A stretch of 64,000 nucleotides of DNA from Eledone cirrhosa. Its lineage: Eukaryota. This document shows positions 13,613-62,216 of the stretch, in pieces. The stretch is taken from NCBI GenBank assembly GCA_964016885.1, contig OZ024742.1, positions 8,184,001-8,248,000 of the forward strand, read 5' to 3'. The position numbers were made by a program, and so were the translations under genes. The notes under the pieces are model-generated. The model worked only from the letters and a program-made list of their open reading frames with translations. It was not told the DNA's origin and searched no databases. The stretch's first letter is position 1. Each line of letters begins with the position of its first letter.

Positions 13613-16600
13613 ATGGATGTGTTAAGAGTAGGATGTTTGAATGCACGTGGCCTGGGCTAAACTTGGAAGCAAGCAAAGCTTCTAAATGACCTCAGGTCAT
13701 GTAGTATAAATGTAATGGTTATCTGTGAGACTCGAATCAGCGTCATGCGGCAGCTGGCCCCCACCTTCGATGACTTTGAGGTGCATGCATCTCTCTGTCA
13801 ACCTGGAGGTGGGGGTGGGGTTGTCGTGCTGCTGCAAAAACACCTGGGTCTTGCCGTACAGGTTGTGCACTCGGACTCGGAGGGTCGTTTGTTGGTGCTA
13901 GACGTTGGCAGTAGTGAAAGTGCGGCCTTGAGACTGGTCGCCGTCTACTCCCCTTTCGGAGCTGAACGGCCCGACTTCTTCCAGCGTTTGGAGACTTTTC
14001 TGGGAACGTCGCGTTCCCTGCTTCTAGCGGGGGATTGGAATGACATCCTGGATGCACGTTGGGACTATGCAGGAGCATGTCCTAATAGAGGGGGGTGTAA
14101 CAGCCTCAAGGGGTTACTCGACCGTTTTAACTTGGTCGATAGATATCGACTAGATTTTCCAACTGTGCCTACCTGGACTTGGAGAAACCACAGTGGTCAA
14201 TCTAGATCGTACTTAGATAGATTCTTAGTTAGAAGTAAGGATAGGGACATATTAAGCTGTCCAGAAATGCGCACGGTTGGCTACACGGATCACAAATTAG
14301 TGACCTGCGTGGTCAATCTCGAGAAAACACATAGACAGGGTCCCGGTTACTGGAAACTTAATTTGTCGTTACCGGCAAAAGAGACTTACAGAAACCGGAT
14401 TAGCAGATTAGTTAAGGAGAGGTTGACGGGTGCAATCGTCAACAACCGATGGTGGGCATCTCTCAAAAGAGAGATTAGAACAGAATCAATAAGTTATAGC
14501 AAGATGTTAGCTGCCAATAGGAATAGAAACGAGAAAGAATTAACAGGTAAATTAGAAGAGGCAATCAAGAGCGAAGATGTGGCCAGAGTGATGGCATCGA
14601 GGACGGCCTTGAACCAGTTTTTCGATGCAAAGCATGAAGGCTGCGTCATTCGAAGTAAAATACGTGCTCTAGGTAATGAGGGGGCCAAAGCCGTTGGATG
14701 GGCCCGCGTGACAGAAGCTAAAAGTGGAAATCGATCCACCATCCGGTCGTTGCAAGACGAAGATGGACGAGTGATCCGGGAGCCTAAGCAGATGTGCGAG
14801 GCCTTTCAAAAGCACTTTGCCCGATTGTTCGGGGGAGGCGAGGGTCCGGGCCGGGGCGTGGATTTCGGTCCATACCTCGACGGCCTGCCGCGTCTCTCGA
14901 ACAAAGAGGCAGAGTCCTGCGAGGGACCAATCTCGGCTGATGAGATCGGAGATGCGCTGAGCCAATGCAGCAGACGCAAATCTCCAGGTCTCGATGGTAT
15001 ACCTTACGAACTTTATTTAGCAATGCCGGTCTTCTTCTCCGAACTCCTCGAAGCGGTCTACTGCAATTGGCAGCAGAACGGGAAAATTCCTTGTTCTGTA
15101 GCCAAGGGCGTAGTCACGCTGGTGAGGAAGGACGAGAACAAGGGGGATAGTATAAATAATTTTCGGCCCATAACCCTGCTAAACACAGAGTTAAAGATTT
15201 TGGCCAAGGTGTTAGCAAAGAGGTTGGCGCTTGTCGTGGGTGGCCTGGTGGGAGATGCGCAGACATGTGCTATCCCATCCAGGTCCATTCACGATAACCT
15301 CCACCTCATGCGATACATCATAGAGAGGGTTGGCAACAAACCCGGCTTCGGTGGGGCCCTGATCAACTTGGATCAGTCTAAGGCCTTCGATAGGGTCGAC
15401 CATGGTTACCTGGATGCGGTGCTAGCGGCGGCTGGGTTCGGTCCTGTTTTCAGAGGCTGGATCACTGCCCTACATAGCAACCACATCTGTTCTAGGATCA
15501 AGGTGAACGGCTACCTTTCGAAGCCGTTCGAAATCACACGATCCATTCGACAGGGGTGCCCTCTCTCCTCCCTTCTGTACGTATTGACTCTCGAGCCTTT
15601 ACTGAGGAAGTTGGAGTTGTTGCAGGGTATCCCCCTGGAACCAGGATTGAGCAAAGCGGTGTCGGCCTACGCCGATGACGTAACAGTAATGGTATCAACC
15701 GACTCGGAGATCGAGGCGATCGGTACCTTACTGGAGGAGTACGAAAGGTTGTCAGGAGCGAAACTGAACCGGGAAAAATCCATCGGGCTGCAGCTCGGAA
15801 CGTGGAGAGGCAAACCGATGCCTCCTGACGGTGTCGTCGGACACTGGACGGAGGGCCCGGTAAAGTTGCTTGGGGTCTGGTTTGGACCGGACCTCCAGGT
15901 GGAAAAGAACTGGAACGAGGTTACGAACAAGGTGTTTGCACTAACCCAGAAATGGGCCAAGTGTAAGCTGTCCCTAAAAGGCCGGGCGGAGGTGGCGAAC
16001 ATTTACATAGCGTCCGTCACTTACTACCGCCTGACTGTCGTGCCTTGCCCTAAGGAAACACTCACCACCATGGAACGCATGCTCTTCCAATTTCTTTGGA
16101 AGAAGCGTCCTCCTATGGTGAGAAGATCCATCTGCTGCCAACAACCTTCGAAAGGAGGGCTGGGGATGCCGTGGTTGATGATGCGTAGGCACGCATTAAG
16201 GCTACGGCACCTACAGGTATTCCTCACTGGTCAACCGGTGTGGGCTCCGTTCGTGAAACGAGCCTTTCCGAGACTCGTCTCACTCACCGAGCTACAGTCC
16301 TGGGTCAAGCAAAGATCCGGAAAACTGGGAGACTGGCACACTGAGTGTGCTCAGGCGCTCAGGGCTCTCTGGCAAGCGGGCCGGGCCATCGGTGGAGAAT
16401 CCACCTCATCATTCTATAGAGGGCTGGTGGCTAGCAGGGGCGATGACACCCTTGGAGAGTCGCTGGACATGGAGGAAGACGAACTGGCCAGCCTGTTCGG
16501 TAGGACTTTCGGCCCAGGACCAATGGACAACTTCCAGAAGTCACTGGCCTGGCAGTGCTACCGAGGGGCTCTACCCGTTCGAGAGAGGCTCTACAGACAC

Positions 16601-17050
16601 GGGCGCCCGGGCAGGGATCCCTCAAAAAAGATTTGCCCTAGATGCGTGCGTCACGAAGAAACCGTGGCGCACGCATTGGTGCAATGTCCGGGCGTGGCTG
16701 ATCTGTGGGGCTACGCCGAACAACTGCTGTCGCGGGTGGCGCCGATTAAATTGACCGCCGAGTCCGTGATGACAATCAAACCGCCTCCCCTCTTCACAAA
16801 GGAAGCAAAGGCGGTTTTTCTGTGCGTAATAGCCATGTTGAAAGAGGTTGTTTGGTGGACACGATTGAAAGGTCTGAGGTCAGGCAACTTCCTCTCTGGC
16901 CATAGTCTGGTCTACTTCTTCCGATATCACTTCGGAAGAAGGATAAGAATGGAGAGAGAGGTGCTTGGCCACAGGCAGTTTTATGAAAGGTGGGTGATAG
17001 TGGCGAGAATGGCTCGTGTAAATGGGCCTTCTCTGTATACCATCCTGTAG
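13613..17050 (+). CDS. LINE ORF2: APE endonuclease, reverse transcriptase and C-terminal zinc finger; one premature stop at 13658-13660
   Basis: MDVLRVGCLNARGLG* is in frame with the 1111-aa ORF. Motifs: ICET, AGDWN, SYLDRF, TDH (EN); SPGLDG, FRPITLLN, DQSKAFDRV, RQGCPLS, YADD (RT); CPRC..ETVAHALVQC. Confidence 0.93.
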
Positions 17051-37571: not shown

Positions 37572-42290
<4,719 letters not shown>

Positions 42291-53450: not shown

Positions 53451-53512
<62 letters not shown>

Positions 53513-53521
53513 CTCTCACTC

Positions 53522-53570
<49 letters not shown>

Positions 53571-53729
53571 CAAGCTTCAAATATTTATATATATATATGT
53601 ATTCGCATACACACACGCTTACATACACACACAGACACACAAACATAGACACAAACATGCATTTATATATATATATATATATATAAATATATATATATAT
53701 ACACATATATACATATATATATATATATG

Positions 53730-53841
<112 letters not shown>

Positions 53842-53844
53842 TAT

Positions 53845-54571
53845 AAAAGCTTTCTCCGATATTGTATTTATTTATTTACTTTTGGTGCAGCAGATTTGAA
53901 ATTTTCCCGATATAAGGTTAGGATTTCTTTGTTTGTTTTTTATATATGAATATTGATTGTTCCTTATATCTCATTCTATTATTTTGCCCGAGAAAATATC
54001 TGTGTGTGTCATCAAATGTTGTACACACATAGATATTTTTTCAATTTCCAATTGAGTTCTTAGCACGTGGCCTGAATTCCTTTTAGAGTTCATTGTCATG
54101 CGCATGTATTGTTTTTTTTGGCGGTAATTAACTTCCTCATTTTTGAATCAGTTTGAGCATTTCTTTAGAACTGCTGGACTGGCAACCTGACAGATACCTC
54201 AGGCACAGATGATGATTATCGCTAAATACTGATGTTGGTTAGATTATCAATATTAGTATTATTGGGGCACCCACTGATGAATTATAAGAGCCCACTTGAA
54301 TATATATCTATTGATGGTATACAAGCTCCTACATAGATTGGTATAATTTAACCCAAATTGTAGGAATCCTGTAATGAAACGAGACGTCCGTCTGGGAAGA
54401 GATATATTCGATATGTCTCATATGAAATAATACAGCCAATTTTCCACGCAATACTTTTAGTTAGCACCCCGAACGCATGATTGGGAATAAAATCACTTAT
54501 TTCCTAATGTTTGTTGAGTGAGTTGGAATTTGGCCGGAGTATCGCTAAAAAGCTTTCTCCGATATTGTATT

Positions 54572-54575
<4 letters not shown>
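53845..54575 (+). mobile_element. Terminally redundant 703-bp HHR monomer (retrozyme-like)
   Basis: 28-bp direct repeat AAAAGCTTTCTCCGATATTGTATTTATT at 53845 and 54548; homologous to the ~996-bp unit; inside (TA)n. Confidence 0.82.
54270..54396 (+). ncRNA. Type I hammerhead ribozyme, long stem II
   Basis: CCCA-CTGATGA-ATTATA...TGTAAT-GAAA-CG-AGACGTC-CG-TC-TGGG; GUC site; palindromic GACGTC in loop III. Confidence 0.85.
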
Positions 54576-54637
<62 letters not shown>

Positions 54638-54639
<2 letters not shown>

Positions 54640-55304
54640 AGTTAAGAACTCAGGGTAGTCCCTTACAATTAAATAGCTCTAAGAAAAAAGCTTTTCCGAG
54701 CCGTACAATATAATTGAATAAACAAGAAAGATGAACACTAATATAAACATACATGGGTTCGAATCGTAAGGAGTGAAATTTTCTAGGGTGAAAAAATACT
54801 AACTACAGCAATATAGTTTGTTATCCTTAACGTTAAATATTAAATTAAGAAAAATTAATAAAAATAACAGACCTATATTGGGAAAAATGCATGGTAACAA
54901 CTAGTCCTGTCAGCCAGGCTGCTATTTTTAGCGGCAGGCAATTTCGAGACAAGCTGGGTTCCGAGTGACACGTGCGATAATTCATATCGTACACAATTTA
55001 TTCTCTAATATTTTTAGAAGTGAAAGGATCACTAATTTCTCAACAACTACTGAGGAGCAGAGAAACGTCAAAACTTCACTTAATAAGTCGTTGCGAAACA
55101 GTCTCCAACACTGTCTAGTTGTTAAAAGGCATTTTTGCCCAATATAGGTCTGTTATTTTTCTTTATTTTTCTTAATTTAATATTTAAAGTTAAGGATAAC
55201 AAACTATATTGTTCTAGTTAGTATTTTTTCACCCTAGCAAACTTTAGTCCTTACGATTCGAACACATATATGTTTATATTAGTGTTCATCTCTCTTGTTT
55301 ATTC

Positions 55305-55308
<4 letters not shown>
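54638..55308 (-). mobile_element. Asymmetric fold-back insert with conserved tail
   Basis: ~180-bp inverted arms (54710-54890 and 55130-55308), a 240-bp spacer and a ~70-nt left tail. Confidence 0.82.
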
Positions 55309-55340
<32 letters not shown>

Positions 55341-55344
<4 letters not shown>

Positions 55345-55548
55345 ATAATCATAAATTTGAAGACCAAAATCCAAAGAGGGCTCGATAAGGATAAATATAT
55401 ATCAAATATATAAGAACCATAGAGCAAATATTTATTAAAATAACAGATTAAAGTTTAAGCAAAGAATCGCAAAGATCTTCTGAAGATCCCGTTAAGGGTG
55501 AAAGCAGCGATTCTTTGCTTATTGCTCAAACTTTAATCTGTTATTTTA

Positions 55549-55555
<7 letters not shown>
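55341..55555 (-). mobile_element. Fold-back insert with HHR core at 55480-55520 (family also at 9967-10085, 23396-23455, 32036-32122)
   Basis: Arms TATTTATTAAAATAACAGATTAAAGTTT..GCAAAGAATCGC and inverse; CTGAAGA-T-CCC-GTTAA-GGG-T-GAAA-GCA..TGC-TT. Confidence 0.75.
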
Positions 55556-55622
<67 letters not shown>

Positions 55623-56245
55623 GTAAAAATAAATTATCGAGAATCGGAATTACGGCCCGCGAAATAACGAAACACAATCTTCGAAATGCATGGCAAAGGT
55701 TTCAATAGTTTGGGTAAACCAGAGCTATAACTAACGTTTAAATACCAACACATAGAGACAATGCTTAAAATCATTCGCACAGCCGAAAAAACGACCAGGA
55801 AAATTCGGGTCATACAAATAATAAATTAAATGAATGAAAGATCATACCCGGACCTGCTAGAAGGATGTTATATTCTAGCATTTTGGTTTCTGCGGTTCCT
55901 AAATCAGTTACCGTCAGCCTACATAAAAAATATCTGGCTTCTGGCAAAATGATGAACGAGGAAGCAACTTTCTCCACAGGCATTTCGTTCAAAAATACAA
56001 AGGCGCCCGTTACTAAATCCACGTGGGGTCTAGCAAGGGAGCGAACCCCTATATTAGGCGAATGAATTCAGTAGTGTATATATTTGTAAAAATACAAAAT
56101 ATCACATATCGAATTAGAGTTCTCAACAGACGGGTTAAAATTAACATGAGCTATTCATCAGTCAATAAGATCAACTAAAAAATCAATAAAATTAACTGGT
56201 CAATAGCTAAAGACTGGAGATAAATACAAATAAATATTGTATATG

Positions 56246-56335
<90 letters not shown>

Positions 56336-56538
56336 AACCAGTAAGACCCCGACAGCTGAGCTCAAGCCGTTTCGACGGCTAATTCTGGACTCAGTCCAGA
56401 ATTACCAGAATTACCCGTCGAAACGGCTTGAGCTCAGCTGTCGGGGTCATACTGGTTCCTATTACCCACTCTACTACCTCAAGTATTGAGTACTTTGGTG
56501 CGTTATGGTCCACCTGGTTCCTTACCACATTTCCTTCG

Positions 56539-56580
<42 letters not shown>

Positions 56581-56796
56581 AAGGTTTAGTAAATAATGAA
56601 AAAGTTTCAAAATAAATTTTAAAAAATTGACTTTACCTACTATAGTTACCTTTACCGATCGGTTTCGAATCCCAAAAATAAAACGGAGACCATACAGCCT
56701 TCGTTGCAAAGAGAGATTCTCGTCAGAAGGTTCTTTTCATTCAAAGAATATAAAATTCCTGAATTTAAATCACAAACTAGCGCTATCCAAAACTGT

Positions 56797-59220
56797 GAAA
56801 TTTCCTCAGTCAAAAGACTGCTCGAATTTCAAATTTGGCGGTCATTCGATACGTGAGGGAGCAGCTTAGCAGACACGATTTTTAACTGCGGTAAGAATTT
56901 TTTATTATATCAAAGTTTAATGGGCTTCCACTGAAGATTTATAAGTGCCCACCTAAATATATTCTTACATGAATATATGTTAGTCTTCTACATAAACTGG
57001 AAACATTCTCCCAATTTGTAGAAAACTTATAATGAAACAATTGTTTGGAAAGAGAGATATGTTTTAACTTTAATTATATCTCATAAAATAATACAACTGG
57101 CTTTCCACAAAATACATATAGTTAGCACCCCAAACACTTAAATTGGGTTATACTAACATATAACCTAATGTTTGTTGAGTGAGATGGTTACCAGTCGGAG
57201 TTTAGCGTTAAGCTTTCTCTGATATTGTATTAAATATGTTACTCTTGATTTGGCCAGAGGTACTTATTTCCATGTACCTTATAAACATGACTTTCCGTAT
57301 TTGTTACTGTTGTGAGATATGGAGGTTTTTTGGTTGTCACTTCTCTGTTTTTAGCCTAAAAAAATATATATATATATATGCGTATGTAAATAATTACATG
57401 CATACATTTATTTTTTTAAATTAATTGAGTTCTTAACACGTGTAATTCATAATAGTTTTAAATAACTAATTAATCCGCGTGTATTAAATATTTTACTCTT
57501 AATTTGGCCAGAGATTTACATTCCCAATCACCTTTAAAGCTTAATCTTCAGTATTTGCTGCGGTGATGTGATGCGGTTTGTTATTTTGGTTTCACCTCTG
57601 TTTTTAGCCTAACAAAATATCTATATGCGTGTGTAATTAATACACGCATACATTCATTTTTTAAATTTCAATTGAGTTCTTAACACGTTTTATTGATAAT
57701 GTTTTTGAAAAAACTAATTAACCCGAGTGTATATTATTTTTTTCTTTTCTCGTATATCGTCGTTGTCTCCCTTTCCCGCTTCGTGACGCTATGAAATTTC
57801 CTCAGTCAAAAGACTGCTCGAATTTCAAATTTGGCGGTCATTCGATACGTGAGGGAGCAGCTTAGCAGACACGATTTTTAACTGCGGTAAGAATGTTTTA
57901 TTATATCAAAGTTTAATGGGCTTCCACTGAAGATTTATAAGTGCCCACCTAAATATATTCTTACATGAATATATGTTAGTCTTCTACATAAACTGGAAAC
58001 ATTCTCCCAATTTGTAGAAAACTTATAATGAAACAATTGTTTGGAAAGAGAGATATATTTTAACTTTAATTATATCTCATAAAATAATACAACTGGCTTT
58101 CCACAAAATACATATAGTTAGCACCCCAAACACTTAAATTGGGTTATACTAACATATAACCTAATGTTTGTTGAGTGAGATGGTTTCCAGTCGGAGTTTA
58201 GCGTTAAGCTATCTCTGTTATTGTATTAAATATGTTACTCTTGATTTGGCCAGAGGTACTTATTTCCAGGTACCTTATAAACATGACTTTCCGTATTTGT
58301 TACTGTTGTGAGATATGGAGGTTTTTTGGTTGTCACTTCTCTGTTTTTAGCCTAAGAAAAAATATATATATGCGTATGTAAATAATTACATGCATACATT
58401 TATTTTTTAAATTAATTGAGTTCTTAACACGTGGAATTGATAATAGTTTTAAATAACTAATTAACCCGCGTGTATTAAATATTTTACTCTTAATTTGGCC
58501 AGAGATTTACATTCCCAATCGCCTTTAAAGCGTAACCTTCAGTATTTGCTGCGGTGATTTGATGCGGTTTGTTATTTTGGTATCACCTCGGTTTTTAGCC
58601 TAACAAAATATCTATATGCGTGTGTAATTAATACACGCATACATTCATTTTTTAAATTTCAATTGAGTTCTTAACACGTTGGATTGATAATGTTTTTGAA
58701 AAAACTAATTAACCCGAGTGTATATTATTTTTTTATTTTCTCGTGTATCGTGGTTGTCTCCCTTTCCCGCTTCGTGACGCTATGAAATTTCCTCAGTCAA
58801 AAGACTGCTGGAATTTCAAATTTGGCGGTCATTCGATACGTGAAGGAGCAGCTTAGCAGACACGATTTTTAACTGCGGTAGGAATTTTTTCTTATATCAA
58901 AGTTTAATGGGCTTCCACTGAACATTTATAAGTGCCCACCTAAATATATTCTTACATGAATATATGTCAGGCTTCTACATAAACTGGAAACATTCTCCCA
59001 ATTTGTAGAAAACTTATAATGAAACAATTGTTTGGAAAGAGAGATATATTTTAACTTTAATTATATCTCATAAAATAATACAACTGGCTTTCCACAAAAT
59101 ACATATAGTTAGCACCCCAAACACTTAAATTGGGTTATACTAACATATAACCTAATGTTTGTTGAGTGAGATGGTAACCAGTCGGAGTTTAGCGTTAAGC
59201 TATCTCTGTTATTGTATTAA

Positions 59221-59222
<2 letters not shown>
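56797..59222 (+). mobile_element. ~996-bp tandem repeat (2.4 units), one long-stem-II HHR per unit
   Basis: Unit starts TGAAATTTCCTCAGTCAAAAG at 56797, 57792 and 58783; no ORF; 3' end in (TA)n; internal ~250-bp duplication. Confidence 0.9.
56926..57050 (+). ncRNA. Type I hammerhead, long stem II (copies 57922-58046; 58913-59037 with mutated core CTGAACA)
   Basis: TTCCA-CTGAAGA-T-TTATAAGT...ACTTATAA-T-GAAA-CAATTG-TT-TGGAA; predicted GUU cleavage after 57045. Confidence 0.88.
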
Positions 59223-59252
<30 letters not shown>

Positions 59253-60060: not shown

Positions 60061-62216
60061 CGAGAACAAGAGGGACATATGAGACAATGTCAGGCCCATA
60101 ACACTGCTCAACACAGAGTTTAAGTTTCGGCCAAGGTGTTAGCGAAGAGGCTGGCGCTTGTCGGGGATTTGGTCGGGGAGGCGCAAACTTGCGCAATCCC
60201 AGCCAGGTCCATACACCAGACCCTGCACCTAATGCGATACATCATAGAGAGGGTAGGGTGTAAACCTGGCTTCGGTGGGGCTCTGATCAATTTAGATCAA
60301 TCGAAAGCATTCGATAGGGTCGACTATAGGTACCTGGAGGCTGTCCTCAAGGCGGCTAGCTTCGGCCCCGTCTTCAGAAGCTGGATCGCTGCAATGCACA
60401 GCGGCACCTGCTCAATGGTCAAAATTAATGGCCACCTCTTCGAACCGTTTCAGGTCTCCCGATCGGTCCGTCAAGCGTGCCCTCTCTCCTCCCTCCTGTA
60501 CGTATTGACTCTGGAGCATTTACTGCGGAAGCTGGAGCTGTTGCAGGGCATCCCGCTCGAACCGGGACGCGGAAACGCTGTGTCGGCTTATGCGGACGAC
60601 ATCACCGTGATGGGGTCGGACACCTCAGTAATCGAGGTGATCGGCAACTTATTGGAGGAATATGAAAGGTTGACGGGAGCAAAACTTAACCCGGAAAAGT
60701 CGGTGGGCTTGCAACTCGGCACCTGGAGAAGCAAGTCCATGCCGTCCAACAGCGTCGTTAGGTGCTAGACGGATGGACCGGTAAAGTTGCTCGGGGTTTG
60801 GTTCGGACCAGACCTCCAGGTGGATAAGAATTGGGACGAGGTGACGGGCAGGGTAGCCAGTCTCACCCAGAAATGGGCTGGGATGAAGCTAACGCTGAAA
60901 GGTCGGGCGGAGGTGGCAAACGCGTACATCGCGTCCGTCATCTTCTACCGCCTGACCGTCGTACCTTGTCCCCGTTCGCGCCTTGCCATCTTGGAGCGGC
61001 TCCTCTTCAAATTCTTGTGGAGGGGTCAGGTTCTGCTGGTGAGGCGGTCCATCTGCTGCCAGCACCCTCTACGTGGAGGGCTGGGCGTGCCGTGGCTAAT
61101 GATGCGCAGGCACGCGCTGAGGCTGCGGCATCTCCAGATATTCTGCCTAAACGGTGAACAGGTGTGGTCGCCGTTTGTCAGACGGGCCTTTCCGCAGCTC
61201 GTTTCTTTGAGCTGCAGTCCTGGGTCAAGAAGAGACCGAGGCTGAGTGACTGGCATCTGGAAAATTGCCAGACACTCACTGCCCTCTACCAGGCGGGAAA
61301 TGCGGTCAGTGGAACTTCCACTCTCAAGTCCTATAGAGGATTAGTGGTGGGAAAAGTGGGACGACGCACTCGGAGAGGCCCTGGGAGTCGACGAAGTCGA
61401 ACTAACCAGTCTCTACTGGAGGACTTTCGAGTCGGGGACGATGGATAATTTCCAAAAATCCCTCGCTTGGCAGTGTTACCGGGGGGGGGGGGGGCACTGC
61501 CGGTTCGAGATAAATTCTGCAGGCACGGTAGTGCTGTCAGACGGACCTGCCCCAGATGCGCGCAGAGCGACGAAACCGTTCTGCACGCACTCGTCCAGTG
61601 TCCGTGCATTACTGACTTGTTGAGTTATGTTGAACAGCTGTTGTCGCGTGTAGAACGGATCCGGCTATCGTCCGAGTCCATAGTGAAGATCGACCCGCCG
61701 CCTTCTTTTGGTCAGGAAGGGCAGGCAATGTTCCTCTGTCTGGTGGCAGTAGCGAAAGAGGTTGTATGGTGGACGAGGTTGAAAAGACTGAAGACAGACA
61801 CTTTTCACTTCGGCCAATCCCTCATCAACTTTTTCAAGTTTCACTTGGAAAGGAAGGTGAGGGTGGAGAGAGAAGTGCTGCCCCCCAGTACATTTGCTGA
61901 AAGGTGGGTGAATGTGGCGAGAATGGCCCGTGTGAGTGGGCCTACTCTGGTCATGCGGCTGTAGGTAGGTAAATTTGAGGAGGAGAGGGGTGCCCTTCCA
62001 GTGTGCTCTCGAAGCGTCGGGTCGTTCAGGATTGGTGGGGTACCTGAGCGAACCCTGGGTGGTCATCCCCCCTATTGGGGAATTTTTTCTTGTAATTTCA
62101 TTGTTACTTTGTTAATGTGATTCATATTGTTTACTCGATTTTTCTGTAAAACCCCACTATCCCAGTCTTTTACATTGTCCCCTATATGTCGGCCCTTGTG
62201 ACCAATAAATGAAATC
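60061..62216 (+). mobile_element. 5'-truncated, decayed Tx1/L1-clade LINE (RT to 3'UTR), different subfamily
   Basis: DQSKAFDRV, RQACPLS, YADD, CPRC..HALVQC with stops and frameshifts. TSD ATTATTATTA(A/G)CAGTAGTA at 60042-60060 and 62217-62235. Confidence 0.93.

Follow-up and report, generated by a model that had tools for sequence, protein, structure and literature searches.

The window, the 64,000-nucleotide stretch of Eledone cirrhosa DNA analyzed here, contains a (TA)n run that is interrupted by a 731-base insert, and the insert begins and ends with the same 28-mer, AAAAGCTTTCTCCGATATTGTATTTATT (Table 1). As the earlier note on this DNA had described, the two copies of the 28-mer are identical (28/28) and are spaced 703 bases apart. 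The base preceding the 28-mer is T at one copy and A at the other, and the bases that follow are TATTTAC and ATATAT, respectively; because the match breaks off at either end, the length of the repeat is exactly 28 bases, which sets the boundaries of the insert. This is its only terminal repeat. The insert thus comprises 1.04 units of a 703-base element and carries one hammerhead motif, and it differs from the majority sequence of its family at 12 of 697 positions. The longest open frame around the 703-base circle is 58 codons and the G+C content is 34%. When unit coordinates are counted from window position 53845, as they are throughout, unit position 1 falls within the loop of a predicted hairpin (CGGAG...CUCCG). 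The z-scores of this hairpin and of its counterpart in a sister family with a 996-base unit are weak (-0.83 and -2.39), and it is a possible recognition element.

Table 1. The insert, its target and the neighboring sister element, in window coordinates
Feature	Position	Strand	Remark
(TA)n-rich run, 5' side of the insert	53660..53844		with 54576-54637, the interrupted target microsatellite
Insert, 1.04 units of a 703-base non-coding hammerhead-bearing retroelement	53845..54575	+	one complete unit (positions 1-703) followed by positions 1-28
5' copy of the 28-mer (unit positions 1-28)	53845..53872	+	would be the last part reverse-transcribed under the proposed model
Type I hammerhead motif	54270..54396	+	core and three helices recognized by sequence; without an Rfam match
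Predicted hairpin immediately 5' of the start tract	54535..54561	+	the 996 family has a predicted hairpin resembling it
3' copy of the 28-mer, with AU-rich TATTTATT at its end as the family's fixed 3' terminus	54548..54575	+	
(TA)n, 3' side of the insert	54576..54637		
Sister element, 2.4 units of the 996-base family	56793..59226	+	homologous along its length to the 703 unit; used for the covariation comparison

The 28-mer had been taken to be element sequence rather than target DNA, and this is borne out. It matches 57210-57237 (25/28) and 58206-58233 (23/28) within the 996-base tandem repeat (family D16), and since the homology between the two units continues on either side of these matches and extends over the whole length (423/703 positions identical), the 28-mer must be internal element sequence. 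It is also the common 3' end of the family, with flanks that differ at each locus. A perfect direct repeat flanking an insert could be the target-site duplication of a cut-and-paste or other DNA-level insertion, yet this 28-mer ends the element at hundreds of unrelated loci, lies internally in multi-unit copies and in the 996 unit, and is itself flanked by (TA)n. We therefore rejected a target-site duplication, the probability of which we regard as negligible.

The hammerhead motif that had been noticed in the insert is present with an intact core, comprising CTGATGA (54274-54280), GAAA (54376-54379, with GAAAC extending to 54380) and GTC (ending at 54392), and it has the A15.1-U16.1 pair; cleavage is predicted after H17, between 54392 and 54393. 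Helix I consists of 4 bp in the 703 family (CCCA at 54270-54273 with TGGG at 54393-54396), and its 996-family counterpart, TTCCA/TGGAA, is 5 bp long. The base of helix II, formed by 54281-54286 with 54370-54375, is AU-rich and 6-8 bp long, and it encloses a branched part of 83 nt that is predicted to fold as two hairpins in both families. Helix III is formed by 54379-54381 with 54389-54391 and has 2-3 bp around the palindrome GACGTC. The differences in stem I and in the palindrome between the two families were confirmed, as was the covariation of the hammerhead with that of the 996 family: when three 996 units were aligned to the 703 unit with MAFFT, both partners had changed in 7 of 37 pairs, at least one of these in each helix, compared with 0-1 in six slid controls. 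The addition of a third, divergent family (locus L012) raises this to 9 compensatory pairs compared with 0-2 in the controls, in a model-fitted alignment that leans towards structure; all these counts rest on few independent contrasts, between two or three families. The divergent L012 copy has retained the core, as have units a and b of the 996 array. With core and helices conserved through compensatory changes, we regard the hammerhead as real as judged from its sequence. The third 996 unit (unit c, 58902-59062) has CTGAACA in place of CTGAAGA, and from this change of core G8 to C its hammerhead is predicted to be dead.

The pair at hammerhead position 10.1-11.1 is usually G-C, which of the three families only the divergent L012 copy has; the 703 family shows A-U there and the 996 family U-U. 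The 15.1-16.1 segment is a perfect 8-base palindrome in two of the families and a 12-base palindrome with one bulge in the 703 family, and a palindromic helix III in all three families marks the motif as dimer type, as far as primary structure can indicate. The dimer-type hammerheads of animals and of Penelope are described, in the relevant part of PMC4209133, as having a palindromic helix III together with a short helix I and a helix II of 7-8 bp. From the presence of a single dimer-type hammerhead it follows that this copy would not release unit RNA alone, and it is probably a dead end. Rfam reports 0 hammerheads in the 64-kb window at gathering score, and at E values of up to 10 the 40 weak matches in 53500-59000 include no hammerhead; the 83-nt part within helix II is the likely reason for this miss.

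The family to which the insert belongs is large. From a genome of ~3.0 Gb the 731-base query returned 2488 candidate places, 40 of which were scored, and a 23-base core of the 28-mer has 968 exact genomic matches, with 0 for the reversed control; the family has about 1000 or more copies. Three samples of loci were used to map the ends of these copies. Sample A consists of 30 loci taken by full-length score rank and is biased to long copies, sample B of 30 loci retrieved with the last 172 bases, and sample C of all 83 loci under the first 100 coordinate-ordered 23-mer matches on contig 1, which makes it length-unbiased above about 30 bases. With duplicates removed, the three samples together provide 139 inserts.

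When these inserts are compared, it is apparent that their 3' ends are fixed. In 132 of the 139 mapped inserts the 3' end lies at unit position 24-40, the remaining 7 being truncated or rearranged, and almost all copies that end in this zone run into (TA)n. Position 28 or 32 is where the terminal copy ceases to match the internal sequence and passes into TA repeats, and the 3' junction can therefore be placed within the tract TATTTATTTATTTA. At least (TA)3 is present at the 3' junction in 81/84 sample C inserts, at the 5' junction in 61/84 and at both in 60/84. A second start site 30-40 nt away was not found among the 139 copies, which have this one 3'-end zone. The sister 996 element of the window ends at the homologous site and is then followed by (TA)n, and at 28 further loci of the 996 family the 3' end is again at the homologous site, with TA-rich sequence beyond it. 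The third family is no test of the start site, because the hammerhead is what it has in common with the others and the 28-mer region is absent from it. Target-primed reverse transcription, as performed by non-LTR and Penelope-like elements, is recognized by just this combination of a fixed 3' end and 5' truncations of variable extent. We read TATTTATT as the start zone for reverse transcription on nicked (TA)n, and target-primed reverse transcription from a fixed AU-rich start is the best reading of these junctions, by way of what would be an RNA intermediate.

Two observations touch on this start site. The 996 unit is a 742-base unit with an internal 254-base duplication (57226-57318 and 57480-57572, and likewise in the next units) that begins at TGTATTAAATAT, the motif at which family copies end; the duplication may be a remnant left when reverse transcription re-initiated there. 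At another locus (L145, contig 1, near 253878962), a 739-base copy is immediately preceded by an isolated 30-base fragment of the 3' end, with the junction 28|702, and it looks as if synthesis had jumped back to the start site after one round.

The 5' ends are variable. Among the mapped copies the copied length ranges from 34 to 2526 template bases, and the copies reach up to 3.6 units; the length of the redundancy thus varies among copies, a point that the earlier note had proposed to check. In sample C, 67/84 inserts are shorter than one unit and 17/84 are longer than 703 bases. Because the 5' ends vary and some copies exceed one unit, the 28-base redundancy in the window is the short end of a continuum. 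The ends gather at several positions that offer a few bases of TA microhomology with the flank. The largest cluster, at unit 544-560, holds 14/83 sample C inserts compared with 2.0 expected and is present in at least two subfamilies. Other TA tracts of the unit, 7 and 8 nt in length, have 0 and 4 ends, respectively. The predicted hammerhead cut lies at unit 548/549. Two copies begin exactly at 549 and others at 550, 551 and 554, seven begin at an ATATAT tract at 558, and three begin 1-5 bases upstream of the predicted cut; as these three ends precede the cut, the cluster cannot be wholly due to run-off. We read it as a mixture of run-off on cleaved RNA, microhomology joining and some stalling at the folded ribozyme, and as a pattern in genomic copies it is consistent with self-cleavage without proving it. 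In the 996 family, 4 ends lie within 11 bases of its own predicted cut, and 4/28 copies stop at one round plus 3-10 bases.

We also considered whether the 5' hot spots were inherited from master copies, and rejected this as the main cause because each hot spot covers several subfamily haplotypes. Common 5' flanks do occur among 132 copies; these are other repeats beside (TA)n that are paired with differing element 5' ends, and they were not taken as transduction.

The ends of copies that exceed one unit bear most directly on the template. Unique copies were pooled for this comparison, with the window copy and L081 (where the boundary is an internal deletion) left out. On the second pass, 15 ends fall at 710-770 template bases, just past one round, 3 at 770-845 and 9 at 845-900, the band of the ribozyme; the equivalent first-pass bands in sample C hold 4 (30-67), 6 (67-142) and 16 (142-197). 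This excess at one round relative to the ribozyme band counts for a circular template. When the first and third bands are compared, Fisher's test gives p 0.006 with the biased samples pooled and p 0.14 in the unbiased sample C alone, and p 0.048 after the removal of five ends inside the AU tract. The 700-750 bin of sample C (4/17 at risk) is not above several other bins. The one-round ends are spread over at least 10 positions and 4 haplotypes and must therefore be independent events. Six copies are long enough to complete two rounds, and the 5' ends of 2 of them lie in the band just past a completed round. We regard the excess of 5' ends just past one round as suggestive, not decisive, and the AU tract, by providing microhomology at the 5' junction as well, can account for some of it. 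That five of the 15 one-round ends lie in this tract, where microhomology with (TA)n accounts for them without a circle, counts against a circular template.

These ends also bear on whether a longer tandem array was inserted and later reduced to 1.04 units by deletion or unequal crossing-over. Tandem arrays do exist both in the 703 family and in the sister family, but the 5' boundary of the insert directly abuts (TA)n, as at 61/84 insertion junctions, and the 60-base band that contains this boundary also holds the independent ends of fifteen other copies. We therefore consider such a reduction very unlikely.

The units within an insert are closely alike. Of the passes across the predicted cut site, 126/128 are gapless and 99 are identical over 16 bases, and the units of one insert mostly carry a common subfamily haplotype. 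Overlapping units differ at 412 of 11893 positions (3.5%); two junction positions recur often among these differences, and every other recurs at most 3 times. Since the differences scarcely recur and the haplotypes are mostly common, the units appear to have been identical at birth, which fits either a single-unit circle or a very homogeneous multimer.

The earlier note had proposed that reverse transcription went once round a 703-nt circle and slightly beyond. The fixed 3' end and variable 5' ends show that copying went beyond one unit; the circular shape of the template is plausible, but a linear RNA of more than one unit would yield the identical product. Such a linear template would come from a genomic multi-unit copy and be partly cut by its hammerheads, with the enzymology and the start site unchanged, and the 28-base redundancy would then be ordinary 5' truncation just upstream of the start tract of the next unit. 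The 17/84 copies that exceed one unit could serve as sources. Copies stop at the ribozyme site in similar proportions on the first pass (14/83, or 16/74 at risk in the 150-200 bin) and on the second (3/11 in the 850-900 bin), as expected from a fixed chance of cleavage per site. Six copies end at unit 546-557 on the second pass (884-895 template bases), and because a pure circle has no end there, these require either linear templates of more than one unit or stalling. A Penelope-like element studied in vitro likewise takes unprocessed multi-copy RNA and starts internally (PMC11167929). On the other hand, a linear template needs pre-existing multi-unit sources, and 5' truncation only shortens arrays, yet copies reach 3.6 units, a length that counts for a circle. 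The enrichment of 5' ends after each completed round over the matching first-pass sequence is also at odds with a linear template, as is the confinement of nearly all within-insert differences to single inserts. No unique 5' flank of the kind left by transduction is shared among 132 copies, although a (TA)n flank would hide one. Taking both sides together, we see a linear multimer as a serious possibility, if a somewhat less probable one than a circle.

Two further points count for a circular template. A dimer-type ribozyme, as this one appears to be from its palindrome, would spare monomer circles, and known animal retrozymes accumulate as circular RNAs that are proposed to act as templates, at least in the portion of PMC7229834 concerned with them. 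We therefore suggest, as a tentative reading whose chances come close to even, that the insert is the retrocopy of an animal non-LTR retrozyme, target-primed into nicked (TA)n and copied once round a 703-nt circular RNA plus 28 nt. Against this reading counts the A-U pair of the 703 family at 10.1-11.1 in place of the usual G-C. In this sequence of events, multi-unit transcripts would self-cleave at 54392/54393 through paired (dimeric) hammerheads and the cleaved monomer would be ligated to a circle. A borrowed Penelope-like reverse transcriptase and endonuclease would nick the target, the 3' end of (TA)n would pair with UAUUUAUU, and reverse transcription would start at the AU-rich tract at unit positions 27-34; the new 5' end would finally be joined to the opposite side of the TA repeat.

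A bolder form of this proposal may also be right, although we lean somewhat against it. The copy ends would then record rolling reverse transcription on a monomeric circle. After nicking (TA)n, the borrowed Penelope-type enzyme would prime at a single AU-rich tract next to a hairpin, pass the ligated ribozyme site and, in each round, tend to stop soon after its own starting point, so that its signature product would be a copy of one unit plus 10-60 bases. With a three-way junction in helix II and a fully palindromic helix III, the hammerhead would represent a dimer-only architecture that is as yet undescribed and that shields the monomer circle from cleavage.

As for the enzyme, the genome appears to be rich in Penelope-like elements: 10596 candidate loci for GIY-YIG endonucleases were found genome-wide, and all 150 that were scored exceed the Pfam cut-off. 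When the 703 and 996 units were compared by BLAST with 30 of these 10596 loci in search of an autonomous partner, only TA-rich chance matches were obtained, and the hammerhead model R1 had no match in these 30 loci. Penelope-like elements resemble the 703 family in several respects, as far as the sections of PMC8557442 and PMC11167929 on these points extend: they leave 5'-truncated partial tandems, start inside repeated RNA and insert into AT-rich or (TA)n targets, and (TA)n is the preferred target of the Naiad elements (PMC8557442). A purified Penelope-like element prefers unprocessed multi-copy RNA in vitro (PMC11167929), and animal retrozymes have been tied to Penelope-like elements by co-occurrence and by similarity of terminal repeats, in the part of 10.64898/2026.07.22.740005 that deals with them. 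We therefore conclude that the element is probably mobilized by a Penelope-like element.

The enzyme could also be that of a LINE, with the element as a SINE-like passenger with a microsatellite tail, a possibility that is independent of whether the template was circular or linear. LINEs and SINEs, too, leave copies with a fixed 3' end and truncated 5' ends, an apparently intact frame with endonuclease, RVT_1 and zf-RVT domains is present in the window at 13715-17050, and the 30 GIY-YIG loci yielded no Penelope partner. The presence of (TA)n on both sides in 60/84 copies together with partial tandems (PMC8557442), and a short helix I, long helix II and palindromic helix III (PMC4209133), are however traits of Penelope-like elements in the relevant parts of these accounts, and GIY-YIG loci are very abundant in the genome; we consider a LINE unlikely. 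The LINE frame (+ strand) is open over 1111 codons, and a broken reverse-transcriptase remnant lies at 60136-61964 (+).

Compared with known systems, the insert is an ordinary member of an already known class, the animal non-LTR retrozymes. These are non-coding and AT-rich, with one type I hammerhead per unit and head-to-tail copies at many dispersed loci, in the descriptions drawn from parts of PMC7229834 and 10.64898/2026.07.22.740005, and the reported unit lengths of 51-972 bp include 703 (Cervera and de la Pena 2020, PMC7229834; Li, Clavereau and Pollet 2026 preprint, 10.64898/2026.07.22.740005; both in the sections that give unit sizes). Unlike these retrozymes, copies of the 703 family are mostly shorter than one unit (67/84) or slightly longer, and are not arrays, and the hammerhead has an 83-nt branched part in helix II and evades Rfam. 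The fixed internal start and the (TA)n target that are mapped in the 703 family do not appear in the portions of the retrozyme accounts drawn on here, and metazoan retrozymes form RNA circles according to the same portions, whereas the 703 family is known from genomic DNA.

Within what the cited passages on Penelope-like elements describe, these elements also have a 30-40 bp 'tail' and pseudo-LTRs, and the terminal redundancy of the window copy is about the size of such a tail; a short helix I, a helix II of 7-8 bp and a palindromic helix III are further likenesses. In contrast to Penelope-like elements, the 703 family has no reading frame, one start zone (27-34) rather than two 30-40 nt apart, no similarity to the 30 sampled Penelope-type loci and only rarely inverted partner arms, and unlike that of an anole Penelope-like element its start tract resembles the target. 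The dimer hammerheads of newt satellite 2 and of axolotl are similar in that helix III has 2-3 pairs and the whole segment is palindromic (PMC7229834 and PMC4209133, in the parts on these ribozymes), and one axolotl class shares the U-U mismatch at the base of helix II with the 996 family; they differ, within the same parts, in that the 703-family helix II has a three-way junction and its units are two to three times longer. Plant LTR retrozymes are likewise non-autonomous, and circular RNA intermediates of 600-1000 nt have been proposed for them in a section of PMC4918200. They differ from the insert in that their hammerheads are of type III and lie in long terminal repeats, and in having primer binding sites and 4-bp target duplications (part of PMC7229834) as well as a polypurine tract. 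The insert has none of these; we find one type I hammerhead and a sole terminal repeat of 28 bases.

The 28-base redundancy at a single locus is an expected by-product and calls for no new mechanism; the more unusual points of the element are its branched helix II and its mapped start zone and target. The RNA-to-DNA route of animal retrozymes is proposed rather than demonstrated in the parts of the retrozyme literature cited above, and the 703 family supplies mapped junctions for it. One start zone, (TA)n on both sides, and pile-ups of 5' ends at the predicted cut and after full units make this proposal testable. Because a covarying hammerhead with a large branched helix II is invisible to Rfam, counts of hammerheads in genomes may be too low.

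Other repeats lie near the insert. A 422-base tandem repeat forms two opposed arms, at 37645-38654 (-) and 39104-41801 (+), and by eye its unit carries CTGACGA ... GAAAC near 39391-39418. The model R1 gives weak periodic matches (22.9 bits) in this array (37645-41801); by eye these lie off the array's own CTGACGA...GAAAC motif, and we treated them as chance matches to a genuine repeat of another kind. In the same (TA)n stretch as the insert, a MITE-like inverted repeat at 54708-54887 and 55133-55312 has arms of 180 bases that are 93% complementary, with 245 bases between them, and its end (...CTGTTATTTTAATAAATATAT) recurs beside (TA)n that adjoins 703-family copies at four loci (L003, L013, L014 and L037). 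A long, nearly perfect hairpin element with (TA)n on both sides is located at 56335-56460, and it also flanks 703-family copies at L016, L112 and L120. The whole of 53660-56580 looks like a single TA microsatellite filled by nested insertions. At L005 (positions 2207-2369), a single (TA)n holds two family copies in tail-to-tail orientation, one measuring just 85 bases; they probably result from two independent events and not from a two-armed insertion.
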